This document shows, in pieces, positions 24,621-62,471 of a DNA stretch of 64,000 nucleotides. Position 1 is the first letter of the stretch, and every line of letters begins with the position of its first letter. The stretch lies in contig NW_027590143.1 in assembly GCF_964213995.1 (NCBI RefSeq), forward strand, positions 806,001 through 870,000, in the 5' to 3' direction. The DNA comes from Mustelus asterias. Taxonomy: Eukaryota. The notes below the pieces were generated by a model. The model worked only from the letters and a program-made list of their open reading frames with translations, was not told the DNA's origin and ran no database searches. The translations under genes were made by a program, and so were the position numbers.

Positions 24621-25224
24621 TGGGAAAAATTCTCTCTCTTCTCAGCAGCCATTCTCCCTACTGTCGCCTGGTGGTTGCTCTTTATTTCCCTCTCCCTCCC
24701 CTCCCCACTACCACGCCCCACCCCCCCCCCCCCACCCCCATCTCCTCGCTCCACCCACTCCGTCCCCACCTCCACCGGCCACTTTCACTGTTCCTGCCTT
24801 AGTATCTAAAGGGTCCTGACCTCAGTAAAAATATATATATAATTTCCAGTGCTGTGATTCACAGCCAATTCCAAATCAACTGATGCAATATCTACAAATG
24901 CAGAGTCTACAGCAGAGTCACAGCAGAGTGACCCGGACCAGGGACATTTGGTCCAAACCCATTGGCATCATTGTGTTTCCCAAATACAAATATGGAGAAG
25001 GCTTGAAAGTGGAGATCTGATCTGTTGGTGAATCTGCTTTCTTGCTACATCAATGCGGTGCTTTCCTACTGTGAACTCGGTCTCAGCGGAACCAGTGAAT
25101 CCATATTATTCTGAGGCTGGATTATGTGAAAACAAATACTTCAACTGCTCCCCAGAATCCTGACAGACCGCTGCTCCCGTTCTCAATCTGAAATATGAGT
25201 TAATTGTGTCTCTCTTCCTTACAG

Positions 25225-26335
25225 TGAACTTATCGACGATTCTTATCCTGTCTCGCGGAAGGTGTGGACTTTCAAAATGTGTCACACGTTCCTAATTTCC
25301 ATGTTAGCAGCGTGTGTACTGGTCGTCATCATCGACCTCATATTGAGGCAAATTCCTATCAGAGTTAATGATCAATTTATCTTCATGCATCATACTCAAG
25401 TGTGCAACATCCATACCGTCCTGCTGTACGCAGTCACCGATTGTTCTGTCTTGTTCACTGTCACTTTCACCTTTGATCGATTCGTGGCCATTACTTGTCA
25501 GAAACAGAAAATAAAATACTACACTGAGAAAACGGCAGTTGTGGTTATTGGAACAGTGAGTGTGCTGCTCAGTGCAAAGAACACGTTCTGGTACTATATG
25601 TCTGAGGATATAGTGTACTTTCCAATAATCTCTACTTCTGTTATGCAGATTCTGATGAATTGTTTTCACCAGCGTGAGTAGAAGTTGAAAGTCTGCATTA
25701 TATTTTAGCCAAAAGACCAGAAGACCATAAGACATAGGAGCAGCATTAGACCACTTGGCCCATCGAGTCTGCTCCGCCATTCAATCATGGCTGATATTTT
25801 TTCTCATCCCCATTCTGCTGCCTTTTCCCCATAACCCCGATCCCCTTATCAATCAAGAACCTATATCTCTCTGTCTTAAAGACACTCAATGAACTGGCCT
25901 CCACAGCCTTCTTCTCCAAACCTCATCTGTTCCTTTATTGCTGAATCTGCTGTTCAATATTTCAACCGTTAAACACATTTTATTGTCGAGCAAGGTTCTC
26001 CGTAGACCTCAGACGCAAAAGAGTGGGGAAAGTTCAAATGGCCAAGAGATAGAGAAGTGAAGAAAATCTACCATCTTACCCTTTGCGATGTCGGGAAATT
26101 TTATCCTGTTATGGTCAGGGTTCCTATTGTTTTGCCTTAATCAGCGATTGTACAAGTTGAATTTATTTCTGTTATTTTGCCATTATTTGTTCAGGAACTG
26201 GGATTTATGCTTCAACTCTAGAGTTGCTGCACCAACACATGCATTCATGCCATGACCCAGACGCAATTCAGAGCGGATCTGAAGAATGTGGTGAAATTTC
26301 CATTTACTGGAATTGTGAAGCTTATTAAACAGTGA
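25225..26335 (+). pseudogene. GPR139-like (class A GPCR) pseudogene, main coding exon
   Basis: After a ttacag acceptor: NL..ILSRGRCGLSKCVTR (frameshift), TVTFTFDRFVAI.CQK.KIKYYTEKTA; later RKSTIL..SGNFILLW and GFMLQL*SCCTNTCI..MTQTQFR. Interrupted by a CR1 tail (~25711-25910) and by stops. Confidence 0.85.
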
Positions 26336-31822: not shown

Positions 31823-33178
31823 TGCAACTCTATTGCTGTCGTGCAGCACATGAATGAAGAGGAGCTGAAATTACTTCCTACTCGAAAACAGGGGCGGTAC
31901 TTGTGCCACTTCGAAAAATAAGGATTAAATTTCCATCCCATTCCACAATCCTGCCAATTGTCCCGAACAACATTGTATTTACATCCTCTCTGCTGGCTTC
32001 TTTTGCCCAAGTGAATAAGATGCTTTCTGCTGCATTAAATCTGAGCCATGGCATGATCGACCAAAAGTATTTCATGAAATTTAAAATAAATCAAATGAAA
32101 TATTAAAAACAGTGGAATACGATCCCACGCCTCCACAAAACATCAGTTCAGTGCCTTGGACCAAAGATCAAATTTACCAGTAGAAAAGGAATGCTGTCAC
32201 GGTTGCAGTTGCTAGTGGACAGAATCGATGGAGAAGGAGTGGGTCATATTTCCCTTCGACTCTCCTCCACCACGGAATAAGATCACGGTGGATCCCATGT
32301 TCAACACCAATTTGCCAACAAATCCCGAATCTCTTAATTCCCTTCGAGTTCAAAAACATTATCCTTCTCAGTATTCAATATCCTCACTGGTTGAGGATCC
32401 GCAGACCGTTGGGCTACAGAATTCCAAGCATTCACAAGCCTCTGAGTGAAGAATTCTCTCCTCACCTCGGTCCTAATGGTTGACGTACTATCCGGATATT
32501 GTGAGCCCAGTTTAAAACACTCCCGACTCGAGCAAGAGGCGGGGGAGGAGGAGGGGTGTAGGGGGCCGGGGGGGGGGGGGATGCGGTGGAGGGGTGTAGG
32601 GAGGCGAGTGGGTGAGGGGGGGGGGTGGAAACAATCTCTCAGCATGTACACTGTCAAACAGTCTCGCCGTTGCAGACTTTTCAGTGGGATCACTTTTCAT
32701 TATTCCAAACTCGAGAGAGAACAGGGTAGTCACAATAAATCTCTCCTCCAAGGGCAACTGTCTCATCACAGCAATCAATCCAGTGAATCTTGGTTACACA
32801 GACACTGCGAGAATAGAGGGAAATAAGAACACAATATGGAAAGTTGATAGAGGTACAGAGAGAGTCTGAGAGAGTGAAAAAGACAGATCGATACACAGAA
32901 ACAAAGAGAGACAGATATAGACAGTACGTGGGGGAGTCAGCCACATCGTATGAATGAATAACGGTGCACACAAAGCCAGCGGCCGGAACCCACAAGCATT
33001 GGGTCCTCTGAATCGTTGACTAGGGATAATGGGAATGTCCAAAAGAAGGGTCAACTTTTTAAATACTTTTGAGTGCGTTGTGTTATTAGATCCCCTGTAT
33101 TGTCAGTTTCTCAAACGAAACCGCAGGTAAACTCATCAAGGAATGAACAAGACTTTGCCATCGCAAACAACAACAATG

Positions 33179-33268
33179 GGGCTCGTCCGGGATTTGAACC
33201 CGGGACCTCTCGCAGTTTTGCGAATCATAACACCCAAAGCGAGAATCATACCCCTAGACCAACGAGCC
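33179..33268 (-). tRNA. tRNA-Pro(TGG) with 18-nt intron (33215-33232)
   Basis: Exons identical to the 13292 copy; intron tgttatgattcgcaaaac. Confidence 0.92.
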
Positions 33269-34381
33269 GCTGTTGACAGAGCTGCTCAAATACGGATATT
33301 ATATTGTCACACAAATCTGATCAGACAGCTGCAGTGAAAGTTGGAGGCGCTGGAAACACTCAGGAAGTCAGGCAGCAAGTGCACACAGAGAAAGGACTCT
33401 CTTCTTACACCTCCACAACCTTTCATTTAAGCTGGTAAAGTTTGGAAATGTAGGAAGTTTTAAACAAGTGATACCCAGGAGCTAGGAAACACACCAACAG
33501 GAAAGGGCCCTGATAGGGTACAATTCAAGAGAGATAAATGAGCAAGTACTTTGTGGTCCATGGCCTGAGCGTCAGGAAAGCAGAGTATTACAGAATGTTT
33601 GCACCGCACAATGAAATCATGCACAAGACCTTTGAAGCAGTCACGTGTGCTGCGGATAATAGGTAACCGGTGAGTGGACTGCACAACGATTACAGAGAAC
33701 TGCAGTGATGAAGTTGGTGGATTTTGGGAATTGAGAGGAACACATGAGCAGCTTGTGTGATTATTTCACGTCATTGCCGCTTTCATACTGCAGCGAAAAG
33801 TAATCGTTGTTGCCACTGAATGAAGGACTAACTTATGTTCTACCTAAACAGAACATCTTGAGAGAGAGACTTGCCTCTGGTGGAAATAGATCTGAGATGA
33901 AATAATGAAATATAAAATGAAGTAAATTAGATTAAACATCCAACGTATTAAAAATATTGGAGCATCCAACCTATTAGAAATATTGGTTCACAGCAAGTGA
34001 CATGAATTGATGCTGTGATCAGAGATATAGAACTGGAACCCACCGTCACACCGAGTGAATCCGCTGTCTGTTTAAATGTTGATCAAAGAAAATGTTTGAA
34101 CATCTTTCACAATGGAACATACGGGAACTCAGTCAATAAGCTGTCTCCACTCACAAATAACGGAAAGGGTCAATTTCATCTCGCAACTTTAAGCCTTTGC
34201 CATCTTATGTACATTCATCATGAAGATTTATGAAGTAAGTGAATAGAGTGTGTGATGGTAAAAAAAACGTGTTCACGCCCTTGGCGTACGTAAGCACAGT
34301 CACGCACACAGAGGAGCAAACATAAGCATACACCACGCGAGACAGAGCACTAAGGAGCGACAAAACGGAGGGCTTGTATTA

Positions 34382-34455
34382 AGGCAATGTAGCTTCGGGG
34401 CAGAGCATTTCACTACAGGTCAAGACGTTTCTGCATTCAAATCGAATGCCTCCAT
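34382..34455 (+). pseudogene. tRNA-Cys pseudogene
   Basis: Mirror of 12014-12086, more degenerate. Confidence 0.6.
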
Positions 34456-34841
34456 CCGCGCTTAATTAATTTTTTTTCAATTAAAACTGCCCGTATTTGA
34501 CTGGAAAGCGCTTTGTTACGTGCGGTGGTCGGGAGAGGTTCTATATAAATGCAAACATTTCATGATCTTCAATCCCAGTCCTCTGTTACTGTCAGTGGAA
34601 ACAGTCTGTCCCTCCCTGCTCTATTAAAACGGCCCTTTTCCCATGTTAGGAGAAGGGATTCACCATGACACACAGCAACACTGTGGGGTAAAATTTAAAA
34701 GAAATGCATGTTTAGATTTGTAAACGATGCCATCATTTGGTCTTACTGTGACAGGTTTGGTGAAAATTGAATTGGCGTCGAATTTGCAGCCAACACGCTG
34801 ACACCCTGATTTAGGATGCCATGTGGGCTGCAGCTGTCTCA

Positions 34842-34915
34842 GTCTCTGTGGCGCAATTGGTTAGCACGTTCGATTATTAACCGGAAAGTTAGTGGTTCGA
34901 GAGCATCCAGGGACT
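34842..34915 (+). pseudogene. tRNA-Asn pseudogene (anticodon ATT)
   Basis: gtctctgtggcgcaattggttagcacgttcgattattaaccggaaag...; anticodon and T stems disrupted. Confidence 0.75.
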
Positions 34916-36396
34916 GCGCTTTCGCTTCTTTTTCTCTCCATCTGCTTTCATTGTCTCTCGGTTTCTGAGTGTCACTGAGTCCTTGGGCAACATTGAAAAA
35001 GACTTATCGTGTGTTTCTGCCTCTACTGTTAGCCGACGTTAGTTTATTGAACATTTATCTCTAACATATTATTTGTAACAATTTATGTATTTCAAATATT
35101 ATTAAACTCAATAACTGAACTCGAAACTTTAACCCATGTTTGATCTTGGGTTGCCATTTTCCTGCACACGCCTCTTCTTTCCCGGAAAGATCAGGAATCT
35201 GTCTGTCCCAACCTGAAATGTGTTCAATGAGGGAAATAGACAGCAAGTCGGCAAAGATCAGTGGATTGAGGACAGAGTTAAACTTCCACCAGAATGCTGT
35301 TTTTATAATTGCAAAGTCCTGAGATTAAGAGCAGATAGTTCACATTTGAGGCGTTTCAGTTCTTTGAGAGATGAATGCCTGCCGTGTTTTACAAGGTAAG
35401 TTTCACAGGATCAGCAATGATGAGATTGGTGGGTTTTGGAAATAGAAAGTTACAGGCGAACAGCTTGTGGGACTATTTCATTTATCATTGCCGTCTTGCC
35501 GTTTTATGTTCTGATAAAACCTGTATTTATAATACAAGCATGAGATGGTGGAAATTCTCAGCAGGTTTGGCAGAATCTGTGGACACGCATCAAATTCTAA
35601 ACACTTCCATTTGTCACCTGTGTTCCTGAAGTATACTGATTATTGTGTTCAAAAAAACTGACAAAACCTTTTCAAAGCAACTGTCCCAACTCTATTTGTT
35701 ATTAAATATTAATGCATCACACTATCTCACCGCCATGTGGCATTTACAATTTTCCAGTGCTTGAATAATATTCTGCAACTGCAGTCATGGAGAAAGAGAG
35801 CAAATTCGTGACAAATGTTATTTTCTGAATCTTATGTGAGATCGATGACTCTGCCACATGGCTAAGGTTGTCAACAGAATTGTAATTCCAGAAAACAAGG
35901 ATTTAAACTGCAATCAGACTGCACGGTTTGATATTCTGGACCGGGCACAATAGTAGTGAGCAGAGTTTCTGGATTGTAGGAGTTAACATGTTCATTTCAT
36001 ATACGATGAGCTCCCCGATTCAAAATCAGGTCGAAACATCATCGAAATTAATATTTTGTTTTAATTTTCCCGGATTCGAGATCGTTGTTGCATCTGAACT
36101 GGATTGGAGCAGACAAAATGTTACTTTGTTCTTCGCCATTTATTGAAAAAATGCCCTCAACAAAGTCGCCACTGGCATATTGTTGCTTTTCTGCGTCCAC
36201 TGTCACACGCATGGTGCAGCTGTTGTAGGCTATATGGATTAGCCATGGCAAATGAGTGATGTTACAGTTATACGGTGGCAAAACGTGCCTCAGTAAGGTA
36301 CTCTGGGCTCACATTTTCTGGATAGCGTTTCAGCCATTTATGACTGAGATATGGAGACATTTCTTCCCTCAAAGGCTTGTGAATCTTTGGAATTCT

Positions 36397-36678
36397 TTGA
36401 CTTGTTATTGTCACATGTATTAGCATACAGTGGAAAGTATTGTTTCTTGCACGCTGTACAGACAAAGCATTCCGTTCATAGAGAAGCAGACGAGAGAGTG
36501 CATAATGTAGTGCTACAGTCATAGCTGGGGTGTAAGAAAATGAATTCAGCATTGTAGGAGAGTTTAAAAGAGTGACAATGAAGTTTTAGAAGCATAGAAC
36601 AAGAGGAAAAGATAGAGTTAGAAGGTATGCTGCGAATAGCTTGCAAGTGGTCGCCTCGCTCGGGCGCCATCTTGCATC
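36397..36678 (-). mobile_element. Short non-autonomous Rex1-derived element with TSD, inserted in a CR1 fragment
   Basis: aattct at 36391-36396 and 36679-36684; 3' part matches the Rex1 tails at 27690 and 58465; 5' part begins caagatggcgcc. Confidence 0.6.
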
Positions 36679-36893
36679 AATTCTGTCGCCGCACAGAGGT
36701 CTGTGGATCTTCAGTTGATGAAGACATTGAAGGTTGAGGTGGAGAGTTGTTGGAATCTAAGTAGATGAAGGGCTATCGGGATTAGGTGGGAAATTGCGAT
36801 TGAGGCTGTGGGTCTGCCTTGATTAAGTCGTGAAGGAGGCTCAATGGGTCATGTGTGCCAATTGTACTCCATTGATGAGTTCAGGGCAGTAAT

Positions 36894-37058
36894 GATGTGG
36901 AGTTGCCAGCGTTGGACTGGGATAAGCACAGTAAGTAGTCTCACAACACCAGGTTAAAGTCCAAGCACATCCCCTTCATCACGTGACTCACCTGATGAAG
37001 GGGCAGTGCTCCGAAAGCTCGTGCTACCAAATAAACCTGGTGCTGTGAGACTACGTAC
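36894..37058. mobile_element. Inverted Penelope pLTR pair (family A)
   Basis: Reverse pLTR end gatgtggag..cgttggactggg..tctcacaacaccagg followed by a forward pLTR ..cctggtgctgtgagact. Confidence 0.75.
36989..37023 (+). ncRNA. Minimal type I hammerhead ribozyme-like motif (Penelope-associated)
   Basis: CAC-CTGATGA-A-GGGGC agt GCTCC-GAAA-GC-TC-GTG: intact core, 5-bp stem II, palindromic AGCT stem III, 3-bp stem I. Confidence 0.65.
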
Positions 37059-37232
37059 AGGGCAGTAATATTAGTTGAAGCGTGTGATCGAATCTTATCA
37101 CCGCTATATGTCCAGTTAATTATCTTGACGAACTATCTTTGTTGTCACAGAATACCATGCAACTCAAATGTAAATTATTGTTGGCAATTGACAGGTTTTG
37201 GAACCAGTTTCCTTGAATCATTGCATCGCAAT

Positions 37233-37304
37233 GTTTCTGTGGTGTTGTGATTGTCACATTCGCCTTACACGCGAAAGGTCCCCTGTTTAATCCCGGCAGA
37301 AATA
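37233..37304 (+). pseudogene. tRNA-Val pseudogene (AAC/CAC-type body, anticodon TAC)
   Basis: gtttctgtggtgttgtgattgtcacattcgccttacacgcgaaaggtcccc...; A and B boxes mutated. Confidence 0.75.
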
Positions 37305-37319
37305 CTTTCATCATAAAGA

Positions 37320-37522
37320 GAAAAGGTTGGATATCTAAACAGACCTGACAGCATCAGTGGAGAGAAATAGAGCCAATGTTTCAAGCCTGGATGACCCTTC
37401 GTCATAGCTCCGGACTCGAAGCGTTGGCGCTATTCTCTCTCTACAGATGCTGTCGGACCTGCTGAAATTTTCCAGCATTTTTCTATTTTTGTTTCAGGTT
37501 CCAGCATCCGCAGTATTTTGCC
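37320..37522. mobile_element. Inverted Penelope pLTR pair (family B)
   Basis: gacagcatc..gagagaaatagagccaatgtttc mirrored by gaagcgttggcgctattctctctc..gatgctgtc; similar structure at 20135-20298. Confidence 0.7.
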
Positions 37523-38439
37523 TTCACAGAAAAAAAATCCAAATGTTTTTTATTTCAGAGGGATTCGATTACTGGAATTATTTGCGCGTTTGTCACTAAA
37601 CATGAATTGGCCTGCTGAGTATTCCCAGTATTTTCTGATTGTAAAGTCAGGAATCACTCAGCAAAAGGAAGAAAAGGAATTTCTGTGATAGAGCACAAGG
37701 TCGGATGGATTACATGACACCAGGAATGGTGGACAAGGCAACATTGAGCCAGTGACAGTGGAGCCTGGGTGGTCTAGTGGTTCAGAGTCAATGTTTCCAC
37801 CGCAAAAGCCCGGAATTGATGATAAACTGTTAACTAAACGGCACGTTGCTCTGCACGTACTTAGTTTCTGGAGCCGAAAGTCTTTGAACATGAAGGATGA
37901 AGACATAATTTGTTTCAGTTGGTTATAAGATGTTAGAATGACTGTGTGACAATGTCAGTAGCGAAAGTGACCTGAAATGAAGCAGTGGAGACAGAGATGG
38001 TTATCAACGAATTTCAGATCTCTGATATTAGCTTTCCTGGCGTCCCGTGGTCAGGTTTCGGCGCCACGTTCCGCGTTGGAGTCCCAGGCAAGTACTAGAA
38101 AACTTCTTATTCAACTCTTCATTAAACGAAAACACGCCTCACAGTGTATGTTAAGGAAGAAACAAGTTTAATCGTCAGCTGAATGAATTGTATCAGAGCT
38201 GGAAAAATCAGAGATGTAACAACAACAGTAAACTCTGAAGAAGAATGACACGGCAGACATTTATCACAAAAGCAACTGACACACATGTCAAATTCTTCCT
38301 CTTTCAAATCGCATTGATTAACTCCTTGTTCTCCACCTCGGATATTTCCACATCCATCAAATATCGCCCACCTGAAAATTCAACCTCTTCTTTGCTCCAC
38401 TGATGATGATACACTAACTCCGAGCTGGGCGCAGGAATT

Positions 38440-38466
38440 GGCTCCATAACTCAGTGGTTGGAGCAC
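38440..38466 (+). pseudogene. tRNA-Thr 5' fragment
   Basis: ggctccataactcagtggttggagcac, truncated; upstream flank paralogous to 47260-47647. Confidence 0.6.
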
Positions 38467-38489
38467 ATCGGGTATAAAGTTGGACAATT

Positions 38490-38768
38490 TAAAGTTTTTT
38501 AATTAAGCTTACAGTAATACTGCAATGAAGTTTCTGTGACAATTCCTTCGTCCGCAGAACCGGCACCTTCTCGGGTAAATTGACAGCGAATTTAGCATGG
38601 CCAATGCACCGAGCAGCACATCTTTCACACTGTGGGAGTAAGAAGGAGCACCGCAGGAAACCCACGCAACACGAGAAAGACATGCCGACTCTGCACAGAC
38701 AGTAACCAATGCCGGGAATTGAAACTGGGTCCCTGACGCTGTGAGGCAGCAGTGCCACCATGTTGCCC
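38490..38768 (-). mobile_element. HE1/V-SINE-type SINE
   Basis: Head tggtggcactgctgcctcacagcgtcagggaccc and V core; followed by a second SINE family copy at ~38845-39185 (-). Confidence 0.8.
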
Positions 38769-39269
38769 AGAAAGATATTCTCTTGTTCATAAACGGAGAA
38801 AGAGCAGACAATGTTTGAAAAGGTGACCTATTATTTTTTAATTCATTAGAAATGGGTGTCGCTGGCTGGCCAGCATTTATTGCCCATCCTGGTTGCCCTA
38901 GGATAGTTGAGAGTCAACCACGTTGCTACAGCTCTGGAGTCAATGTCGGCCAGGTCGGATAAGGGACGGCAGATTTCCTTCCCTCAAGCACATTACCGAA
39001 CTCCATGTTTCTTTTTCCGACAATCGGCAATGGTTTCATGGTCATCAGTAGATTCTTAATTCCAGATAGTTTTTATTGAATACAAATTCCACAACATGCC
39101 GTGGCAGGATTCAAAACCGGGGCCACATAAAATTGGGTGCGTTTCTAGATTAATAGTCTCGCGATAATATCACCAGGCCATCGTCTATCCTAGTTATAAG
39201 CGTTTATGTTGAAAGAGATTTGGGTGTGTTTGGACAAGGAACGCAGGAAGATAGCATGGTGGCGCAGCA

Positions 39270-40701
39270 AACAAACAACAAACAACAAAGAACAAAGAAC
39301 AATACAGCACAGGAACAGGCCCTTCGGCCCTCCAAGCCCGCGCCGCTCCCCGGTCCAGGATTGAATCCTGAATCCAGGATCCCCGCCCAATTTTCCAGCC
39401 TATCTACATACCAATATCCTATCCACCGAGCTGTCCCTCACAGCTACGATGCTTTGTCCATTACAACCTATTAACTCACCCCCACCCCCCCATTCCAGAC
39501 CATGTGATCTCCAGGGAGAGGCGAAAACCCAGAGTGAAAAACCCCAGGGCCAATATGGGGAAAATAAAATCTGGGAAATTCCTCTCCGACCCCCTGAGGC
39601 GATCGAAACGAGTCCAGGAGATCACAATGGCCCTGATCGGAAAATGCTTCCCAACCCTAGTCATTTCCACTTCCACGAACACCATATGAATTCCCTGCCC
39701 CCGAGACAGGTTCCCAACTATCCGCAGTCTCGCTCTGTACTGGCACCAGCAAGATGATCATAGAATGAAGCCTTGAAACGAGAAACAAGGAACAACTAGC
39801 CCGCGCCGCTCCCTGGTCCAAACTAGACCACTCTTTTGTATCCCTCCATTCCCACTCCGTTCATATAGCTGTCTAGATAAGTCTTAAACGTTCCCAGTGT
39901 GTCCGCCTCCACCACTTTGCCCGGCAACACATTCCAGGCCCCCACGACCCTCTGTGTGAAATATGTCCTTCTGATATCTGTGTTAAACCTCCCTCCCTTC
40001 ACCTTGAACCTATGACCCCTCGTGAACGTCACCACCGACCCGGGGAAAAGCTTCCCACCGTTCACCCTATCTATGCCTTTCATAATTTTATACACCTCTA
40101 TTAAGTCTCCCCTCATCCTCCGTCTTTCCAAGGAGAACAACCCCAGTTTCCCCAATCTCTCCTCATAACCAAGCCCCTCCATACCAGGCAACATCCTGGT
40201 AAACCTCCTCTGTACTCTCTCCAAAGCCTCCACGTCCTTCTGGTAGTGTGGCGACCAGAACTGGACGCAGTATTCCAAATGCGGCCGAACCAACGTTCTA
40301 TACATCTGCAACATCAGACCCCAACTTTTATACTCTATGCCCCGTCCTATAAAGGCAAGCATGCCATATGCCTTCTTCACCACCTTCTCCACCTGTGACG
40401 TCACCTTCAAAGATCTGTGGACTTGCACACCCAGGTCCCTCTGCGTCTCTACACCCTTTATGGTTCTTCCATTTATCGTGTAGCTCCTCCCTACATTATT
40501 CCCACCAAAATGCATCACTTCGCATTTATCAGGATTGAACTCCATCTGCCATTTCCTTGCCCAAATTTCCAGCCTATCTATATCCTTCTGTAGCCTCTGA
40601 CAATGTTCCTCACTATCTGCAAGCCCTCCCAGTTTTGTGTCGTCCGCAAACTTACTGATCACCCCAGTTACTCCTTCTTCCAGATCATTTATATAAATCA
40701 C
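39270..40701 (-). mobile_element. Young 5'-truncated CR1 LINE with long 3' UTR
   Basis: Uninterrupted ORF 39823..40701 (SKFADDTKL..WQMEFNPDKC..LVRPHLEYCVQFWSP..FTQRVVGAWN) and ttctttg-type tail. Confidence 0.95.
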
Positions 40702-41742
40702 AATAGGAAGGGAAATGGCATCTTGGTCTTTATTGCCAGCAGATTGCTGTATAAGAATAAAAACGCCAATTTACATTTATACAGGGTTTTGTTAGGAGCA
40801 ACTGTGAAATATTCGGAGCGTTTTTGATATCCACGAGGCTTTTCTTTGGAAAAAAGGCTATCCTTCCATTGGAGACGGTCCACTTGGTTGGTTCCAGCGA
40901 TGAGAGAGTTCTCCTGGGATGAGAGGCTGTGCAAATTGGGCTGAAATTCCCTGGAGTTTAGAAGACTGAGAAGCAATCTTATTGAACCGACAGAATACTG
41001 AGAGATTGTTTCCCAGTCTCAGATGAGGACTCATCGGAGAACTGACACACAAACACATCCAGCAAAGACTCTAATTCTGAACTTTAATTGCATGTTTGAA
41101 ATGAATATATATTATACCATGTGATATGTATGATACGAATAGTCATTAAATAAGTAATGTTGACAACACCTGACCACAGTAGAACGGCAACATTTGAGAA
41201 ATATTTTTATTGTTGCCTAGGTTCACAAGCCGGAACTGCGCGACAATGAATGCTGGTCGGGAAAATAAAAGTACAACCTCCGCCTCTGGATGGTAGTGAG
41301 CCACCAAACATTTGCTTACGAGTTGAACGCAGGAAGAAATTCCGCCACTGAAACTAAGACACACCATATCAGGGTATCAGCGAGTGCTGGATGTATCCAA
41401 CCCTAATTCTCTTTTCGTAAAATATAGTCGAGAACTACAACATGACCACATCGTTTGCAATACTATGCAAGCCCCTTGACTATTTCCCTCCCCACAGTAT
41501 TGCTGCGATTTCGTGGTTACCCGCTTCTGCTAACAAGGGAAAGGGCCGCTTGATGAAGTAGATAGGGACAAACTGTTTCCACTGATGAGGGTCAGTAGCC
41601 AAAGGATTGGGATTAAAGATAATTCAAGAAAGATCGACTTGTATTCATGTCGCGCCTTTCCCGGTTGCTGGACGTCACCACGCGCTTTGCAGCCAATGAA
41701 AGACAGTTGTAATTGAAAAGAAAAGTATCAATTAAACAAGAA

Positions 41743-41814
41743 AGGGGGCACTCGGATTTGAACCGAGGGCCTCTTGATCTGCAGTCAAATGCTCTACCAC
41801 TGAGCTATACCCCC
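41743..41814 (-). tRNA. tRNA-Cys(GCA)
   Basis: GGGGGTATAGCTCAGTGGTAGAGCATTTGACTGCAGATCAAGAGGCCCTCGGTTCAAATCCGAGTGCCCCCT; fully paired T stem CTCGG/CCGAG. Confidence 0.93.
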
Positions 41815-42891
41815 TCAGCTGTCAGTTGGTCCTCGGGATTCAATGTAGTTTTATTGAGGGGGATCGAGCGGTCAGATTGCATGCCGCTTTGTCTCATCGT
41901 AACTGGTTTCTGAGTGAAGTCGGAGAGCTTAGCGTTTAAGTTAGCGAGATGTTTTCTTGTGATTTGGCTGAGATTTGGATCCAGGTCTAGGAGATGTTTG
42001 TGTCAATCTAATCGATAAAATGTACCCCATTGTCATACAGATTTGACCTTGTATCCCCATCTCTATTGGCAGCGCTTTGCAGCCTATCACTGTCCTTCAC
42101 TATCTGTGTTTGTTCTTGAACAGTTGCCCATGTGACATTTCCAATTCGGACAGAAATATAGATCTAACTCCACTGCTTCTGATAGAGCTGTTTTCGATCA
42201 GGAAACAATTCAAGTTTGTTCAATGGATTATCAAGAACTTTAAATCTTAGCATATCGAAGCCGATCTATGACCCTGAAAGCGCCGAATCCTAAACAGTGG
42301 ACCACCAGGATTTCATCTTCCTGATTCTCCCAGATACTGAGTACAGGAATATGCAGTGTCAATTATTCACAGTCGCATTTCCTTCCAGTCTCGTGCATGT
42401 TGTTCAGCTTTGAAATTGTTCATCTTTTCACATTAGCTTCCAATGAGATGAAAGCGGAGCTGTGATAAGCTGAAGTTTTTCAACAGATTTACCACAATAA
42501 GGTTTATAACAAACATTGCTTTTTGAATGTGGTGAGCGACAGTGAAACTTAATGCAGTAGAAGGTAACTCACTCATTCTGACAGGATTTACCAGCAATTG
42601 CAATGTAAGTATGAGGTCGAGATACCGGCGTTGGACTGGGGTGGGCATAATAAGAAGTCTCACAGCATCATGTTTTACCAGCGCCCCGAAAGCTCCTGAC
42701 TCCAAGTCGACCTGGCATTGTGAGACTTCTTAATGTAAATGGATTGTTGTGGGTAGTTGACAGGATTGTGGAATCGTGCAGATTTTTCCTCTTTGCTATT
42801 CAATCTGCCACAAGTATCGCTCCCGTTTTCGATCAGGAAGCAATGCCCCCTCTCCTTAATTCATGTGTTGCACGAGAGCAATAAATCATCA

Positions 42892-42963
42892 TTCCCTGAC
42901 CGGGAATCGCACCCAGACCGCAACAGTGAAAGCTGTGAATTCTAACGACAGGACCAACATGGA
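42892..42963 (-). pseudogene. tRNA-Glu(TTC) pseudogene
   Basis: Mirror of 9235-9306; T loop GTGCGA. Confidence 0.75.
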
Positions 42964-44568
42964 AATTGAGATGGCTAGAGCATTCTTGAGCAAGTGTGTG
43001 CGTGCGTGCGTCTGTCTGTGCGTGCATGCGTGCGTGCGTGTCTGTGTGTGCGTGTGTGTCCGTGTGCGTTTGCGTGCGTGTCTGTGTGTGTGTCGTACCC
43101 TCGGGTAATCACTGATCAATGAAGCCGTCGACCTCTTTATCGCTCAACTGTTTGTGTTCTTGAGCAATCATCCTCTGGAGCTTGTGCAATGAGGCCAGGA
43201 GAGTAACACACTGCATCATCCCCAATGTGATTGCGGTGCGATTTGCTGAAAGTTGTTAATTTTATCAAAATCATCCATTGCGAATTGTAAATGAAATGAC
43301 CTTCAGTACCCGTTATGAATTCTCACAACATCAGGGTAAAGTGCAACAGGTTTATTTGGAATCACGAGCTTTCGGAGCGCAGCTCCTTCATCACTCACGC
43401 TGAGGATTCACCACATTTTTCTGTCTTTGAATGAAAGTAATAGATATCTCATCAATTCCCCGGTATCCTGAGTATCTGACATTGATTTCCACACTACATT
43501 GCTTTAAATCTTTGTTTTCAATGTGAAATTAAGCGTTTTGATTCCATGTGAAGGATTTACACTTATACCCTTCTGGGAAGATGGTGGCATAGTGGTAACA
43601 TCAGTGGAGTATGAATCCCATGGCTCAGGCTCACAGGTCACGATCCCACCACAGTCTAGAACTGAAACGGAAGTGAAAGCTAGTCTCAGTAATGAAGCTT
43701 TATTTTCTGATTGTCATGAAAACTCATGTGGATCTTTTGCAGAAGGAAATCTGCCATCCTTCCCCTTTCTGGTATCCATTGGACTGCAAACGCAAGGCAA
43801 TGTGATTGACTCTTAACTGCCCTCTGAAATGGCCGAACAAAATGCTCAGTTCAGTGGGAAATAGGGATGGACAACAAATGCTGGCATTGACAATGAAATA
43901 TACATTGCATTAGCAGCATTTTATGAAATGATTAATTCTCATTTTGTTTAATTTCATGTCAAACAGGGTGACATATTCTGGTGTCTTATTATTTAAAACC
44001 TCAGCCCTTTAACTATTTAAACAGGTAAGGTTCAGTCAGAGAAAAGTGATCCACTGTGATCCAAAACTAGGAATTGTAATTGCTGCAAATCCCACCTCAA
44101 AACAGAAAATGTTGGAAGCACTCATCAGCTTCAGCAGCTTCTGTGGAGAGGGAAAGAGAGTGAATGATTCAGGTTGCTGACCTTTGACCCTAACTGGAAC
44201 AAATTAGTGATTTAATGGTTTACAAACGAGTACAGAGTCATGGAAAATAGAGAGGGAGAGGAGGAAAGAACAAACGGTCTTTTGATAGGATGGAAGGCTG
44301 GAGTGATTGAATTACAATGGAGATGATTATTGTTCCCACTGACACAATCTCGCAGATCTGTGTTTAAATCTCATAATAAATGAGAACAAAACCTCTCGCT
44401 CAGTTCAGTGCTGAATACACCGCCTTCCAGTGAACCGGAGGCAGTTTTCAGTCAGAAAGCCGCAACTGTGAGATAAACAAAGTAGAAACGAGAAAGACTC
44501 AGTTTGAGCGGTGACACTTCTGGAGAAACAGAATTCACCCAGGAATGGGACAAATTTTAAAACAGCAA

Positions 44569-44633
44569 CGCCCAACGTGGGGCTCGAACCCACGATTAAG
44601 AGTCGCATGCTCTACCGACTGAGCTGGCCGGGC
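44569..44633 (-). pseudogene. tRNA-Lys(CTT) pseudogene, 8-nt deletion
   Basis: Mirror of 7613-7685 lacking the 3' anticodon stem and variable loop. Confidence 0.88.
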
Positions 44634-45470
44634 ACATGGGCGAACTTGCTTTCCATAACCTAAAATGCATAGAGCCAAATATGGCTTTTTCATCTGGTGT
44701 CTCAGCTTGTTCTGATTTCAAAGTTTACAATGAATCGACCTACATAATTCCCAAGGTTCCTATCCATCCTTCTCAATCATCAATTGCATCATTTCCATCT
44801 TCCAATTCCAAGCTTCACCTCTCCCAAACATTCCAAACTCCTCTTACATCATCCACCCTGTGTTTCTGTTCTTAATAATTTCGCCAGGGTTGGGGGGAAC
44901 AGCCTCTCAACATTTACACTGTCAAACTGTTTCCCAGTTTCATGCTTTTAAATAAGATCACCTCTGATTAATCTAAACTCCAGAGCAAACATACTCATCC
45001 CACTGAATCTCTCCTCCCAGGAGAAACGCAGAAATGAATCCAGTGAACCTTGGTTACACACAGACAGCGAAAGAATGGAGAGAGCAAGGAGCAAAAGAGG
45101 TCAACGTCATAAAATCAGTCAGAGAGACTGACAGCGTCTGCGGGAGATATATAGAGACAATGAAAGCAGAAATAGCGAGTGGGGTACACATCCACAATCC
45201 ACGTATGAATAACAATATACACACAGCCAGCTGTCTGAACCAACTAACATGGGGTCCTCTAAACTGGTGAACAGAAATAAAGTGAATGACCATAAGCATA
45301 TTAACCTTTTAATGTCATGATTTTCTTGTGTGAGTGTTGTGTTGATAGATTGCCTGCACTGTGTGTTCAGGTTCTCAAACCAAATCCCACGTAAACCAAT
45401 CCCACCGTTTGCACTAAAAATACATATATAAAACCTATGACTTGTCCAATACGAAACAACAGCAGAATGA

Positions 45471-45562
45471 GGGCTCTAGCCCGGCATGTGAACCCGAGAT
45501 CGCTTGCAAGTTTGTGGATGTTGACACCCTGGGCCCGAATCATACCCCTCGTCCAACGAGCC
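45471..45562 (-). pseudogene. Degenerate intron-containing tRNA-Pro (anticodon reads AGG)
   Basis: ggctcgttggacgaggggtatgattcgggcccaggg[tgtcaacatccacaaact]tgcaagcg...gagccc; 18-nt insert at the same site. Confidence 0.75.
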
Positions 45563-47261
45563 GCTGCTGGTGAAGTTATTCACCATTCAAAGCTGCTCAG
45601 ACTTCTGCAGTGAAAGGTGAAAATGCTGGAAAAACTCAGAAAGTCAGGAAAACAAATCTCATATTTTAGCTCCATAACCTTTCGTTGGGAATAACTGGGA
45701 ATTGTTAGAAATGTAGGAGGTTTTAAACAAGTGTTATCCAGCAGCATAACAAGAGGGGAGGCCTCTGGCCGGGTGGAAATCAGAAGAGATTAAATGAGGG
45801 AAACAAAGAATTTTAAAGTAATGGGGCCATTCCTAAGTCCCTTACAGGACTCCGTTGTGTTGTGGATGAAGGGGAACCTGTGGATGCAATGTACGTAGAT
45901 ACCATTGGAGCCACAGTGATGAGTTGATGGGTTTTGAAAATTGAAAGTTACACTTAGGAACATAGAATTAGGAGCAGAAGTGGGCAAATTCACCCCTTCG
46001 AGCCTGAACCGTCATGCAATCAGTTCATGACTGATCTCTCCCTGTTCTCAAATCCACCTCCCTCTCTGTTCCAATATCCCCTCATCCCTTTTATTATCAG
46101 GAATATATCGGTCTCTTTCTTGAAATCATTTAATGATTCAGACTCAACCGCGCTATGGGGCAATGCATTCCACAAATTCACGACCACCTGTGAGAAGCAG
46201 TTGCTCCTCATCTCAGTTTGAAATATACCATCTCTCAATCTATACATTTGACATGCTGTTCTCGATTGCGAGTAAGAAGAAAAAATCTCTACGTTTACTC
46301 TTTTCAATCCTATTTAGAATTTTGTAAACCGCAATCACTTCAGCATCTTGTGGGACTATTCCTCCTCACTGTCATTTTCAATTCCCAGCAAGCACAATCG
46401 GTGTTGTCATTAGCGGAAGTAGTCACGAATGTTCCATCCAAACTGGACATATTAAGGGATATATGTCAAGTGATTTTGAAAAACACAGTTCACTCGTGAC
46501 CCTGGGTGTCCAATGGGTTATGTTCAGTATTCTCCAGTGTTGTTTGGTCTCAATTCCCGCTCAGGAAACGATTATTTATCGCTCTCAGCAAACTATTAAC
46601 AAATAACCTGATTCACTATCTGATCGAAAGTAAATCCACTAATATCAGCCGAGTGAGTTTTGCATGTCGACACCACAGCTAGAAATGTCACATGTGCAAC
46701 AGGGTCAAGAACAAATACAGAAGCAGAAAGGCAGTGATCGGCCGCAAAGCGCTGACAATAGAGATGGTGATGTAAGGTTGTGCCGTGTCGTTTTTGGCAT
46801 GAACAAAGAGGAGCGACATACCAATGTAAACAGTTGTTGAGGTAAAGGAACGTGTGCGGAAGGAATGGAGAAAATTATTGTGGACTTCGGAATCGGAAAC
46901 AAAAGACACAATGCTGGAAAATCTCACCAGGTCTGGCAGCATCTGTAAGGAGCGAAGAGAGCTGACATTTCGAGTCCAGATGACTCTCTGTCAAAGCTGG
47001 GAGGAGTGGAGTTGCTCCGATAGAGAATACAAACGGTAGCACAGGCCGAATGACGATCTTCCGATTTAAACAACAGGATTGCCAACATTGAGACTGCAGT
47101 CCCGGCCCAGGGAAGATATTGGGATTTTCCAGGTGAGGTTCAAATCCTGTCATGAGCGCTTCCCGTCATTCCTCATTGTGACATTTGTTTATTGAAAGTT
47201 ATTGGAAATGAAGCAATGGGTGCAGAGATGATCAACCCATTGCAAATCTCTCACATCAGCG

Positions 47262-47323
47262 TCACTGATGGTCCAGTGATCAGCGTCGGCGGCGTGACGC
47301 GGTTTCGAATCCCAGTCACGGAG
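47262..47323 (+). pseudogene. tRNA-Glu-derived pseudogene lacking anticodon loop
   Basis: Mirror of 4327-4388. Confidence 0.6.
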
Positions 47324-47647
47324 TGAATAAATTTTCGTTCATTTCTTCATTTAATAAAAACACGCCTCATAGCTTCTGTGAAGGGAGCAACAAGCTTAAT
47401 CTTCCAGTTGGGTGAACTTGTATCAGAGCTGGAAAAGTCAGAGATGTAACATTAACAATAAACTCTGAAGAAGAGACACATGACACACACAACATACATG
47501 TCAAGTACATACACAATACACATATCAGATCATTTCACTTTCAAGTTGTGTCTTTTAACTTCCTGCTCTCCACCTCAGACATTTCCACATTCATCAAAAA
47601 TCTCCGACCTCAAACCCCATCCTGGTCCTCAATCCACTGATAATACT

Positions 47648-47720
47648 GGCTCCATAGCTCAGTGGTTATAGCACTGGTTTTGTAAACCAGGGGTCGCGAG
47701 TTCAATTCTCGCTAGAGCCT
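47648..47720 (+). tRNA. tRNA-Thr(TGT)
   Basis: ggctccatagctcagtggttatagcactggttttgtaaaccaggggtcgcgagttcaattctcgctagagcct; two stem mismatches. Confidence 0.8.
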
Positions 47721-50510
47721 ATAAGTAAAATTTAGCTGATAGAAATAAGCTGTGGGAAAGGGGCTGGGAAATGAATTAGAGACATTTGATGAGCGTCGGT
47801 CCAGATCGGGTGTAACTTTGGAAAACAAATAGGTATTTCCTTCTTCGTAAAAAAATAATAAGAACAAGACATATTTGCAGAGCTGAAAAAGGTAGGTGTC
47901 GATATTGAGAATAGAATAGATGCGTTTGTACAAGGAATGCATAAAGCTAGCATGTCGTTGCAGGTAATGATGCAGGTAATGATTGGAAGGAAAATTGTAT
48001 TTTGGTCTTTATTGACGGCAGACTGGAGTCCAAGAATAACGAGGTGTTGCTGCAGTTGCACAGGGTTTTGTTGAGACCATATGTTGAATATTCTGCACAG
48101 ATATGATATTCACATTTAATAAAGGATATGTTTCCATTGGAAACGGTGCAGATAAGGTTCAGCAGATGATCCCTGGGATGAGGGATTTGTCGGGTGATGG
48201 GAGGCTGAGTAAATTGGGCCGAAAGTCTCTGGAGTTTGGAAGAATGAGATGTGATTTCATTAAACCTACACAAGTCTGATTGGGTTTGATAGGGTGGAGG
48301 CTAAGAAATTTCTTCTGCTCGTCGGGAAATCTAACCCACGGCAGTACAGTCTCAGGAAAATGGGCTGATCATTTAGGCCTAAGATAAGGAGAAATTACTT
48401 TATTGAAATGGTTGTGAATCTTTGGAATTCTCTGTGCCAGACAGTTATGGAAGCTCCATCATCAAATACATTCAAGTTTGGGATACACAGGTTTCTGGTC
48501 TCTCGGGGAATTCAGGGACATGGGGAGCTGGTGGAAAACTGAATTGCACTCCAAGATCAGCCATAACGGTATTGAATGTCGGAACAGGCTCGATGGACCG
48601 AGTGGTTTACTCCTGCTCCTATTTATTGTGTTCATCTGTATGATCAAGCTAGTAATTCATGCTAAAATAAAAACAGAAAGTGCTGGAATTTGTCAGCAGG
48701 TCTTGCAGCAAATGTGAAGCAGAGAGTTAAGGTTCCGAGTCTCATTATGAATTTTCTTAAAGCAGTAACTGAGTGTGAGTTACAACAATTAGCACAATAT
48801 CGAGACAGGGAATTTAATTTAAATCCAGGCAGCGAAAGCCCTGAATTTAAACTCCTGTGTTATTTCTGTAGTAAACTTGTTCAGGAAACTTACCTGCCAA
48901 TTGAAAGTGTGGATGTTTGAGAGCCCCCCGAGCCAAATGGACTCCCGCTATTCCTGTTTCTGCTTGTGTTCCAGACAAAAATTTACTTTGTGCCCTTCTG
49001 TAACAGTGAAATATTGTCCAAACTTTGCCAGTCTTGCTGTTATTCAGTAAATTACCAGACTGTCATGACACAGAGGTTAATCCCCTTTATCTCACATCGT
49101 AATCTGGAAAAACTGTTTGTGACGCTGCTAACTCCTTTTACTTAACGTTCCGAGTCTTATTAATAAGACAAATGTCTGTCAATCACTTTGAGTGAATAAT
49201 TAACAAGCTATTTTATTGAAATAACCAAGAACTTTAAGTAAACAATTAACATGTTAATTAAGGTACGGTTCGACTGAAATGCTGTTCAAATAATACGAGG
49301 AACATTCATTACCAAAACAGCGATAACGGAATTTTCGTCACTCTCAAATAAATTATACAACCAGGCTTGATGGGATTCTCAGATTTAGGAGTTCTTCAGT
49401 AGTTGTGCGCTGTCTGTAAGGTCTTTCTAACCCCGTATCCTTCTGTTAGATAGTTTTCTTAAGCGATTTTTAAACTGGCAGGGATGGAGAACTGCTCCAT
49501 AGACAAATGGTTTTTTTTTTTAACAGGCTGCTCTGGCCTCTAGATATGTTCACCCAAGATATTATCTGGAGATGGCTGCTCCTCTGGCCCTTTTTACCTG
49601 CCATGACCTCGCAATTTTCTTGCACCACGATTGGTTTGATGCTGACAACAACAACAAAATCAAAGCTGATAGGTTCCCTTCAGCTGAGTGTTTACTTTAA
49701 ACTTATAGGCTGAGCTGAATGTCTTCTTTAACTCAAATCTTAACAAAATGCAAAAACTTGTGGGGCCTGTTACTAAGTCAAACCTGATGTTTGGTCCCTT
49801 TCAAACAAATGTTGCAACCTGGAGTCTGTATGTACTCTACATTTTAGCACATAACTCTAAAACAGCAATTCAAGGACTGTTTTCTTTCCCTCTAGCATTT
49901 TTTAAAACAATTCTTTTATCTGTTTATAAACATTATTTTATATGTTTACAAACTCAACTTGAAACTGGCAGATACAAGCTGGCTCTCATCTCTCTCTTTG
50001 CAGGATGGAATTCGTCTGGTCTACATGCTCACTGAAGCACCAACACGACAAGGAGCCATTTGCTGGTTCAATCCATCCTAGTAGTTCTAAGGAACTGTAC
50101 TGCCCAATGAGACATCGGTGTCCATACGTAAAGGAGAGAGTCCAACTGGAAAATAGTGTTGAAAAATACGTCAAGGAAAAAAATTAAGTGAGGTATGAAG
50201 TTTTATTTAATGTGAACTTGAACGGACAGTTTATGGAACATGTTTATTTTGTTTGACTATTTGGAATGTGCTGAAACCCAAATAACATTCTTATATTTGA
50301 CTAAGCTTCGTGTTAAATTGGTTGTTCAGGAAGAATACTCAATTTCTTCACTCGTCACTTACCTCCTACGCAATTAGAACATACCAGGCATAGCCTGCGA
50401 TGAGTGCATTAATTTCAACATCATGTTTCTATTGAATAGCGATGGTTTTGTCTCGGTATGTGGTATAAGTGATGATAAAGGAACACTGATTCCCCCCACC
50501 ACCAACAGTT

Positions 50511-52806: not shown

Positions 52807-54220
52807 TGAAGACGGGAATGGGTTAATGAATTCTAATACTCAAAGTGACAAAGTGAATTCTGTGCTATTTCGGAATTGTGTGAGAAACACTGTAGAACTC
52901 ATGTTTACGTTAGGGTGTTTTCATGCTCATGTATCAGGAGTATAGAAGCACAGAGGGACCTAGGTGTGCAAGTCCACAAATCCTTGAAGGTGGCAACACA
53001 GGTGGAGAAGGTGGTGAAGAAGGCATATGGTATGCTTGCCTTTAAAGGACGGGGTATAGAGTATAAAAGCTGGAGTCTGATGATGCAGCTGTATAGAACG
53101 CTGGTTAGGCCACATTTAGAGTACTGCGTCCAGTTCTGGTCGCCGCACTACCAGAAGGACGTGGAGGCGTTAGAGAGAGTGCAGAGAAGGTTTACCAGGA
53201 TGTTGCCTGGTATGGAGGGTCTTAGCTATGAGGAGAGATTGGGTAGACTGGGGTTGTTCTCCTTGGAAAGACGGAGAATGAGGGGAGATCTAATAGAGGT
53301 GTACAAGATTATGAAGGGTATAGATAGGGTGAACGGTGGGAAGCTTTTTCCCAGGTCGGAGGTGACGATCACGAGAGGTCACGGGCTCAAGGTGAGAGGG
53401 GCGAAGTATGACTCAGATATCAGAGGGACGTTTTTTACACAGAGGGTGGTGGGGGCCTGGAATGCGCTGCCAAGTAGGGTGGTGGAGGCAGGCACGCTGA
53501 CATCGTTTAAGACTTACCTGGATAGTCACATGAGCAGCCTGGGAATGGAGGGATACAAACCATTGGTCTAGTTGGACCAAGGAGCGGCACAGGCTTGGAG
53601 GGCCGAAGGGCCTGTTTCCTGTGCTGTACTGTTCTTTGTTCTTTGTTCTTTGTTGTTCTTTGTATCCATGAGCAGATAAAGGTAGCAGCTGTGGTATACA
53701 GGAATATGTTGTGACGGCTAATCTGTTCCGGAATGCGGCTAACCCCGCCATTTTGTATTCTTTAGTTATGTATTGCTGTGTAACAGTAGGGCCTTCTGTG
53801 ATCGTATAATGATGCATTCATATATATTCATCGTAAACTGTATCGATATAGATATTATACAAGCACCTACGAATATATATAAATTGCTATAAGCCAGTTA
53901 ACTTGTTTGTACGAGACTGTAACCTTGTACGTTTGTATGGTACCCCACCTGTGTTCAGAGAACAACAGTCATGGCCTTGACACGAAACCACCAAGGCAGC
54001 AAGATTCACACGATGGAAGACAAGCCACAGCCGGGGAACCAGTGAGGCCTGGGAAACTGAACGTGACAGGGGGGGGGGGGGGGTATAAATATATCTTAAC
54101 CTGTATTTGCTGAGAAGGAATGAGGCCGTGTTAGACATCGGACGAATCTCCCACAATTGTGAAAATAAACCAATGTATTTTGACCTACGAATAGACTGAA
54201 AGGTATCTTTACCTACGACA
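52807..54220 (+). mobile_element. Solo LTR (about 680 bp once the nested CR1 is removed)
   Basis: TG...CA termini, 4-bp TSD gacc (52803-52806 and 54221-54224), TATAAA at 54084, AATAAA at 54164. Confidence 0.7.
52936..53660 (+). mobile_element. Young 5'-truncated CR1 LINE (short 3' UTR form)
   Basis: Open RT C-terminus to 53571, close to the 39823..40701 ORF; TSD tgtatc at 52930-52935 and 53661-53666. Confidence 0.95.
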
Positions 54221-61485: not shown

Positions 61486-61542
61486 ATGATCCCTGATCAC
61501 AATATTTGCCGAACGCAGTGTTATGTTGGGTGAGGCTCTGAG

Positions 61543-61581
61543 AGTTTTTGTACAGGTTCAGCCCAGCTCTGTGCCTCTGTG
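61543..61581 (-). promoter_or_regulatory. 23-RSS (recombination signal sequence)
   Basis: Heptamer CACAGAG (61581-61575), 23-nt spacer, nonamer ACAAAAACT (61551-61543). Confidence 0.92.
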
Positions 61582-62471
61582 GGTCTCAATGCGCAGTAAT
61601 ACACACCGGCGTCTGCCAGCTCTGTTTTAGACATTTTCAGCTGAATGGTGCGGGTTGTATCATTGAGCTCCGCTGATAAACGGTCCCCTGGGAATCTCTC
61701 TGTGTTCCCAGTATATTTGCTTCTCATCAGTAGATACTCCATGGATCCGCTGGGACACTGACGGTACCAGAATAGGTAATAATTGTCAATGCTTGCAGTT
61801 GTATAATTACAGAATAACTGAACATCATCTCCTTTACTCTCTGTGACTGCAGCCGGCATCTGTGAAATTGAATCTCCTCCACATTGTCCTGTAAGAGACA
61901 AGAGTAATGCTAAATTAAACGACGTGAGTTCACTTCGTCTAATGGCCGGATTCGGCCCGTCACCCTGGCCAATAATCTGAAAAATGAATCAAAGGATCTA
62001 AACAGAAACATATTTCCCGCAACACGCAGGTTGTAACGGGATCGTGTTTGCAGCGGTTAAATGACACTCCGTTAAATGAACACCTTCGAAGGAGATCAGA
62101 TCCTCGCCTTCGCTTTACGTTATTTGAAGGGGAAACTAAACTGTCCGTGGGTTTATAGATCTCGGGTTTGTCAAAGCTTTTATCCAGTTTATCGAGTTTG
62201 TCAAAGTCCCTCACCGGCTACAGTGGGGCCTGCAATCCCACTTTAACTCTTCGCTCTCATTCAGCTGAAGTATTTTGCCTCCTCCCTTGGTGAGACAAAG
62301 TGGATTCTAATTGATATTAGAATTAATATATATTTTACCAGTGTGTTAATCGAACTGCGCAATTGAATGCAGTGAATGGTAAATACGTAAAACACAGAGT
62401 TTGTAACTTGTGAACCTGCCGGTTAATAGAGCTGCAGCGGTGAAGAATAAGCTCAGAGTCACAGGAGACAT
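61582..62471 (-). CDS. T-cell receptor alpha/delta V gene segment (leader 62471-62420, V exon 61888-61582)
   Basis: MSPVTLSLFFTAAALLT leader; GDSISQ..VQLFCNYTT..LFWYRQ..MEYLL..DAGVYYCALR, open, with both Cys, the Trp and a 23-RSS; in-frame splicing needs a GC donor. Confidence 0.88.

Follow-up and report, generated by a model that had tools for sequence, protein, structure and literature searches.

A three-way junction with two U-rich internal loops in the 3' UTR of an elasmobranch CR1 retrotransposon: a candidate ENE-like stabilizer

Why does one CR1 retrotransposon of Mustelus asterias carry, in its 3' UTR, 463 bp that a closely related copy lacks? We analyzed the 64,000-nucleotide stretch of DNA that holds both copies (contig NW_027590143.1, positions 806,001 to 870,000; hereafter the window). 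An earlier reading of this DNA, made from its letters and open reading frames, had described the extra segment (hereafter the module) as a nested multi-stem fold bounded by 23-bp direct repeats, and had suggested that it was a conserved structured RNA (ribozyme-like, for export, or for recognition by the reverse transcriptase, RT) or a passenger on CR1. The 11 coordinate ranges given in that reading all read as claimed.

The host is a 5'-truncated elasmobranch CR1, and its RNA strand is the - strand. It has the C-terminus of the ORF2 RT, the terminal hairpin and the microsatellite end of a CR1 LINE (Table 1). The - strand frame matched the RVT_1 domain (E 4.8e-5, under the curated cut-off), and contig depth in public sequencing runs dropped beyond ~40703. 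Among the best 120 ORF2 relatives listed, the most identical from named eukaryotes were elasmobranch proteins (62-68% overall; Stegostoma, 68%; Hypanus, up to 66%; Mustelus, 65%; Chiloscyllium, 64% identity to the ORF2 frame), and the named bird and turtle relatives were mostly 41-53% identical. Three other relatives (P0001, P0003 and P0094), labelled Klebsiella, Proteus and Clostridioides, are on contigs of 1.2-1.7 kb and are probably vertebrate DNA in bacterial records. A scan for ORF2 gave 10 candidates, none of them confirmed. The host may be the element labelled HER1. The accessible part of one source gives a HER1 LINE and an HE1 SINE for sharks (PMC3747384), and that of another puts CR1-group elements at 22-34% of elasmobranch genomes (PMC13343379).

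The direct repeats are real: the two copies are 22/23 identical and 463 apart, and 100 dinucleotide shuffles of 39330-40000 gave no 23-mer repeat better than 18/23. They are not specific to the module: the repeat is the 5' arm of the stem in which a CR1 normally ends, here duplicated. In the minimum free energy (MFE) fold, the upstream repeat and adjoining sequence (39786-39815, - strand) form an 11-bp hairpin, which might prevent this repeat from pairing wrongly with the genuine terminal stem at the 3' end. The sister CR1 has the motif once (3 mismatches to the upstream copy) and lacks the 463-bp interval, as had been described; it is 86% identical to the long element across the aligned region (571/663). 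The terminal hairpin is common to the long element and the sister, and three more CR1-type ends in the window have the hairpin without the repeat. Because short CR1s without the module keep this hairpin, the role in RT recognition that had been suggested for the module is unlikely.

Table 1. Features of the host CR1, the module and the sister element
Feature	Position in the window	Strand	Remarks
CR1 ORF2 3' remnant (RT C-terminus)	39823..40703	-	open frame 39823-40770; 5'-truncated near 40703
Direct repeat, upstream copy	39798..39820	-	just past the ORF2 stop
Module 5' part	39652..39797	-	z +0.9, not notably structured
Structured core, three-way junction	39499..39632	-	closed by P1, 39617-39625 with 39504-39512, extendable
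P2 side hairpin	39588..39604	-	6 bp, bulged G, U-G pair, variable loop
Double ENE-like arm	39515..39587	-	P3-loop-P4-loop-P5-apical loop
P3, 7 bp	39581-39587 with 39515-39521	-	uninterrupted
Lower loop	39576-39580 / 39522-39527	-	AAUUU / UUUUCG
P4, 6 bp	39570-39575 with 39528-39533	-	between the loops
Upper loop	39561-39569 / 39534-39541	-	U4-A-U4 / U5-CAC
P5, 5 bp	39556-39560 with 39542-39546	-	
Apical loop, 9 nt	39547-39555	-	
ORF2-derived remnant in module 3' part	39385..39409	-	23/25 match to 40559-40583
Direct repeat, downstream copy	39335..39357	-	5' arm of the CR1 terminal stem
CR1 3' terminus	39268..39330	-	terminal hairpin 39317-39330 and microsatellite tail, without poly(A)
Sister CR1, short 3' UTR	52936..53660	+	repeat once, no module

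We used public sequencing runs to determine the state of the element family. Part of the module was present in 20 of the 24 runs listed, and at least half of its sampled words in 14; depth was analyzed in the contigs of four runs (X1, X2, X9 and X16). Long and short 3' UTR forms occurred together in these contigs, joined at the repeats, as had been supposed. The short form was seen directly in X1, as joints skipping 462-469 letters and as loose ends at both repeats, and the depth of short CR1s without the module at least equalled that of the module-bearing form. The two forms within one genome are a natural experiment with and without the module. Summed contig depth in X1, which is a rough guide and not a copy number, was 0.9-1.3 million over the module, 0.3-8 thousand over the flanks and 2.4-2.5 million over the CR1 just upstream. 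The module thus belongs to a high-copy CR1 subfamily that exists beside an abundant short form, and within that one abundant elasmobranch subfamily it is a constant component of the 3' UTR. In X16, which we guess to be an RNA run, depth was high across the module and higher over the core. X2 and X9 each had one contig across the module, of depth 5-10, with 3 and 7 differences; these contigs may be trace DNA and were not counted as independent carriers. The abundant CR1 ends in X2 have another UTR, and only that single low-depth contig covers the module.

The runs also gave the state of the core across the family. Position 39565 reads U on the sense strand in 715,652 of 826,834 depth in X1 (87%) and in 71,159 of 72,563 in X16 (98%). 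The A that interrupts the upper U-run is a change private to this copy, and the family majority has a pure U9. Among the rows listed, indels at 39537 and 39565 merely shorten U-runs, and there were three substitutions in the core, two at unpaired bases and one in a two-U register in which either U can bulge; these are the best-supported rows, with 350 weaker ones beyond them. One 578-letter contig in X1 shares only the core (39498-39651, ~83%, with 23 differences and 3 gaps), its other 427 letters being unmatched, and is perhaps another repeat family or a donor lineage.

The fold is confined to a small part of the module. The 150-nt core at 39490-39639, a segment picked after the fold had been seen, folded better than every one of 200 shuffles, both on + (z -4.0) and on - (z -4.1). 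Windows of 120 nt slid across the module gave z of only -2.2 to +1.5, and neither the 5' part (Table 1) nor the 3' part (39358-39497, z -1.7) was notably structured, which limits the structure to ~135 of 463 nt. In the long arm, the MFE structure is the same as the centroid and has an ensemble frequency of 0.60. Thermodynamics alone do not separate the strands. The sequence-only reading had the fold on the + strand, antisense to the LINE, with A-rich joiners. The A-rich joiners are there on +, and are U-runs on the LINE sense strand; it is this strand that is informative, through its U-rich loops and through the U-G pair of P2, which the opposite strand would replace by a mismatch and which so favors the sense strand. 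Of the former interpretation, the view of the module as a conserved structured RNA is supported, in that it has many copies and has homologues beyond the sharks; antisense folding is not supported.

Searches for known RNA families gave nothing at the module. An Rfam 15 scan of the window found only 7 tRNA matches, and a search of 39200-40000 at E up to 10 gave one chance match (E 8.9). A covariance model of the core found no further copy in the window. Other features of the window include eight tRNA genes and large inverted and direct segmental duplications (~1700-13750 and 32850-49250, 84-94% alike) that contain tRNA genes. There is also an immunoglobulin V-set ORF (61521-61988, - strand, E 2.5e-14), presumably resembling a T-cell receptor V segment, and an ORF fragment (25199-25681, + strand) that we take to resemble a G-protein-coupled receptor.

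The long arm, with its two U-rich loops, has the layout of a double ENE (dENE); an ENE is an element that stabilizes RNA through a triple helix with poly(A). According to the accessible parts of two sources, an ENE is defined by a U-rich internal loop that adjoins G-C pairs and lies close to a 3' end, and a dENE by a pair of such loops with a short duplex between them (PMC7583470, PMC13541005). A descriptor requiring G-C/C-G pairs on the flanks of a U-rich internal loop, with thresholds set post hoc after the sequence had been seen, matched two places on both strands of the 64 kb; both are in the long arm, on the LINE sense strand. On 30 shuffled windows it gave three matches in total (mean 0.1), and 1 of 1000 module shuffles gave any. 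The arm thus has U-rich internal loops on the CR1 sense strand, G-C pairs adjoining them, and two loops split by the short P4 duplex. The lower loop is flanked by two G-C pairs below and a C-G pair above, which are invariant in all five sequences compared below; the upper loop has a C-G pair above and, below, an A-U pair followed by G-C. The core is ~250 nt from the 3' end of the element, which is the element end and not a mapped RNA end. The lower domain of a dENE of the TWIFB1 type, with a 3-4-nt bulge and an interrupted A-minor stem, was not found: the lower loop has two extra bases on each strand and only three U on its 5' strand, and P3 is uninterrupted. As for the adenosine triad and 3'-end binding pocket of that type, two conserved A are at the base of the lower loop. 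Because the lower domain departs from the TWIFB1 description in this way, we withhold that label and suggest that the arm may work like a dENE, not that it is a TWIFB1-type dENE.

Homologues of the core were found outside sharks. A metagenome scan identified four loci (L001-L004) that retain P2 and P3 and have a U-run on either strand of the loop. Their spacer differs from that of the shark, and each unit has a single loop, as against two loops in the shark arm. The four loci are a multi-copy repeat (~77-95% identity between loci; core in L004 at 1987-2068, + strand) without an ORF2 of its own. They are bird-type loci. A CR1 end is nested in L001, presumably of bird type, and in a search for protein matches to the translated core the one named match of 11 was from Columba livia. 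The CR1 ORF2 in L001 was considered as the carrier of the motif and rejected; it was dropped as evidence because it belongs to a nested insertion separate from the motif. Second tandem units occur ~175 nt on in three of the four loci (23-35 bits), and in two of the four they have a U7 / U5 loop closed by G-C. The tandem units keep the U-loop and lose P2. Over the ~175-nt tandem units the U-loop hairpin is progressively decayed, and many unnamed predicted proteins translate the repeat. These loci could be an ENE-bearing non-autonomous element or a lncRNA family.

Traces of the core were also found in other tetrapods. In a second protein search, which returned 22 proteins, the only named one was a Chelonia mydas gene model (P0153), which begins with an antisense translation of P2 and P3. 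In a set of 21 proteins, two (P0157 and P0162) look like chance repeats, and ten others whose records were consulted carried no names. We presume that the full core is present in the CR1 UTRs of turtle and frog. In the Xenopus CR1-2_XT row of the alignment of Suh et al., 14 letters directly after ORF2 equal the 3' strand of the core, a match of only 14 nt at a place where the authors had cut ambiguous columns. Together, these sequence matches suggest that the core probably dates from early in vertebrate history, with a single-loop form still present in bird, turtle and probably frog sequences. Four GTDB loci (L005-L008) were all chance bacterial matches without the fold, a viral locus (L009) was likewise a chance match, and the other viral scans for the core gave no matches.

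We aligned the shark core with the four loci. All 75 of 75 cells pair, compared with 45-67% in slid controls. Three of the 15 pairs change on both sides; all are in P3 (3/7 of its pairs) and all separate the shark from the rest, so that the covariation is effectively between two lineages, the four loci being related to one another. The changed 3' partners in P3 had been left free by the search pattern. An alternative to these changes is one G-C pair inserted on both strands, possibly a single event. The covariation score was reached by 6 of 500 shuffles, a figure that is not a probability. In P2, all six pairs, including the U-G pair, are invariant in the five sequences.

On balance, and by analogy with known ENEs, we favor the reading that the core acts as an ENE-like stabilizer that protects poly(A) on the CR1 sense strand, a role absent from the proposals of the sequence-only reading. 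An intronless CR1 transcript would read past the end of the element and be polyadenylated at a downstream signal, and its poly(A) tail would fold back into both U-rich loops. If PAN, Evade and TWIFB1 are a guide, U.A-U triples would stack there (up to ~5 in the upper loop, three in the lower), and A-minor contacts would form at the G-C pairs beside the loops. Capture of the tail would slow deadenylation and lift the RNA level, giving more copies of the master element. CR1 primes at its hairpin and microsatellite and not at poly(A), so a hidden tail would not block insertion. The main gap in this reading is the tail itself: on its sense strand, the 3' UTR of the element lacks both AATAAA and any run of five or more A, and the nearest polyadenylation signal is in the flank, at 39077. 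As given in the accessible part of PMC13343379, Zenon is the only one of the CR1-group elements with a poly(A) tail, and the tail to be bound is therefore an assumption. For the ENE of Evade, the accessible part of one report describes a triplex with A20, a need for the flanking G-C pairs, and raised RNA levels and insertions (PMC12501189).

P2, the junction and the conserved apical motif are foreign to known ENEs and are not explained by the ENE reading, which leaves room for other roles. The sequence conservation of P2 in all five sequences and of the apical motif, common to the shark and L002, suggests specific recognition. The core could then be a platform for proteins that serve nuclear export, localization or assembly of the ORF1p/ORF2p particle, with the junction, P2 and the apical loop recognized and the U-runs forming U-U mismatches. 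Intronless LINE RNA needs an export route. We consider this platform unlikely: the known retroviral export elements generally have purine-rich loops, the core has no Rfam match (which also tells against the export element or ribozyme of the sequence-only reading), and the short form mobilizes without the module. A protein platform would also leave unaccounted for the doubling of the U-loop in the shark and the tandem units that lack P2.

It is improbable that the module is a passenger without present function, an older piece of CR1 3' UTR that was captured and amplified with the master element. The patchwork make-up of the module, with its ORF2 remnant and unstructured 5' part, fits such an origin, as do the abundance of short forms in X1 and the other UTR on the abundant CR1 ends of X2. 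Against it, only the core has been kept between the shark and the bird-type loci, with compensatory change; the core-only contig of X1 fits only 39498-39651, and the family majority retains a pure U-run. Least probable, and very much so, is a self-cleaving ribozyme or switch with a pseudoknot between the apical loop and P2 with its 5' bases: there is a three-way junction, ribozymes occur in other LINE UTRs, at their 5' ends, and the apical loop can pair with 39602-39607 (6/6 in L002, 5/6 in the shark, L001 and L003, 4/6 in L004). Against it, this pairing would exclude P2, depends heavily on G-U pairs and would have to bridge an arm to which an entire domain is added in the shark relative to birds. 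No ribozyme family matched, whether at the gathering score or with E relaxed to 10, and cleavage at the core would sever the ORFs from the 3' end needed by RT.

How the subfamily came by the module is a separate question. We think it likely that the module was gained. In this route, a chimeric or template-switch event would have brought in the core with neighboring CR1-derived scraps and left a second copy of the 23-nt terminal-stem arm. Gain is favored because the module is a patchwork with an ORF2 scrap, the repeats of the short forms are more divergent, and the core-only contig of X1 shares nothing else. The ORF2 remnant scored 40 with strict scoring, against a shuffle maximum of 32 (0/1000), with weaker colinear likeness on both sides; a longer alignment with lenient scoring (79, against a maximum of 85.5 in 300 shuffles) was not significant. 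The sequence after the upstream repeat, that is, the 5' part of the module, was considered as a decayed CR1 end and rejected, since it resembled the usual end of a CR1 no better than chance (518 of 1000 shuffles were as good). Loss is the less probable course; here, a long form would be ancestral, and the short forms would have come from it when the two repeats recombined.

A full-text literature search, with most subscription papers beyond its reach, found no ENE in a non-LTR retrotransposon and no paper on the core motif, and the accessible part of a preprint on human conserved structures (10.64898/2026.10.24.761493) mentions neither ENE nor CR1. The sequence is probably already within repeat consensuses; the structural reading appears to be new. 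Transposon ENEs are known from plants, fungi, slime mould and stickleback retroviruses, according to the available part of PMC7583470. We tentatively raise a broader possibility, that jawed-vertebrate CR1s carry an ancient, unannotated family of poly(A)-triplex elements (ENEs) set in a three-way junction, common to sharks and tetrapods, and gained, lost, doubled (in the shark) and tandemly repeated (in birds). If this is true, non-LTR retrotransposons would have their first ENE, CR1s would outnumber all other sources of ENEs in vertebrate genomes by a wide margin, and host transcripts that end near a sense-strand copy could be stabilized. CR1 is a dominant retrotransposon group in most vertebrates, and an ENE within it would bring non-LTR elements into the range of poly(A) protection, offer a testable reason for the amplification of some subfamilies, and bear on whether tail-less LINEs copy from polyadenylated RNA. 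The single, double and tandem natural versions would be a resource for RNA-stability engineering and for structural work on triplexes.

The module can be compared with several known systems. The RT recognition site of CR1, a 3'-terminal hairpin with a microsatellite, is described in the accessible parts of PMC4316615 and PMC3747384 and is present in the host element, in long and short forms; the module differs from it in lying upstream of the hairpin and in being dispensable. The conserved bodies of the SINEs UCON3, Deu and Meta are, like the core, short retroposon domains kept across vertebrates. Unlike such SINEs, the module has no Pol III head, and the UCON3 rows in the accessible part of the PMC7245038 supplement look unlike the core; a UCON3-domain SINE (tRNA head and UCON3 body) was rejected as an identity for the module, the core motifs being absent from that part of the supplement (compare PMC5753468, seen in part). 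The triple helix of MALAT1, MEN-beta and MALAT1-like loci shares a vertebrate U-rich internal loop with the arm, and differs in its downstream A-rich tract and tRNA-like structure, neither of which was found when sought in the module; the module also had no Rfam match. The single ENEs of KSHV PAN and Arabidopsis Evade/Copia93 have a U-rich loop and flanking G-C pairs in a 3' UTR, and the bird-type loci have this single-loop form. The ENE of Evade is in a retrotransposon 3' UTR (PMC12501189, accessible part), as is the shark core, close to the element's 3' end; Evade, an LTR element, has a poly(A) site that is defined, and the likeness is one of layout, with no sequence relationship claimed. 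The closest likeness in form is to the dENEs of plant and fungal transposons, such as rice TWIFB1, which share two U-rich loops, a short helix between them and adjacent G-C pairs; they lie near the 3' end of an intronless transposon RNA, as the core would if its RNA ends close to the end of the element. In contrast to TWIFB1, the lower stem here is uninterrupted, without a clear bulge or adenosine triad, and CR1 has no genomic poly(A); the host is a vertebrate non-LTR retrotransposon, and the arm is set in a three-way junction beside an invariant side hairpin.
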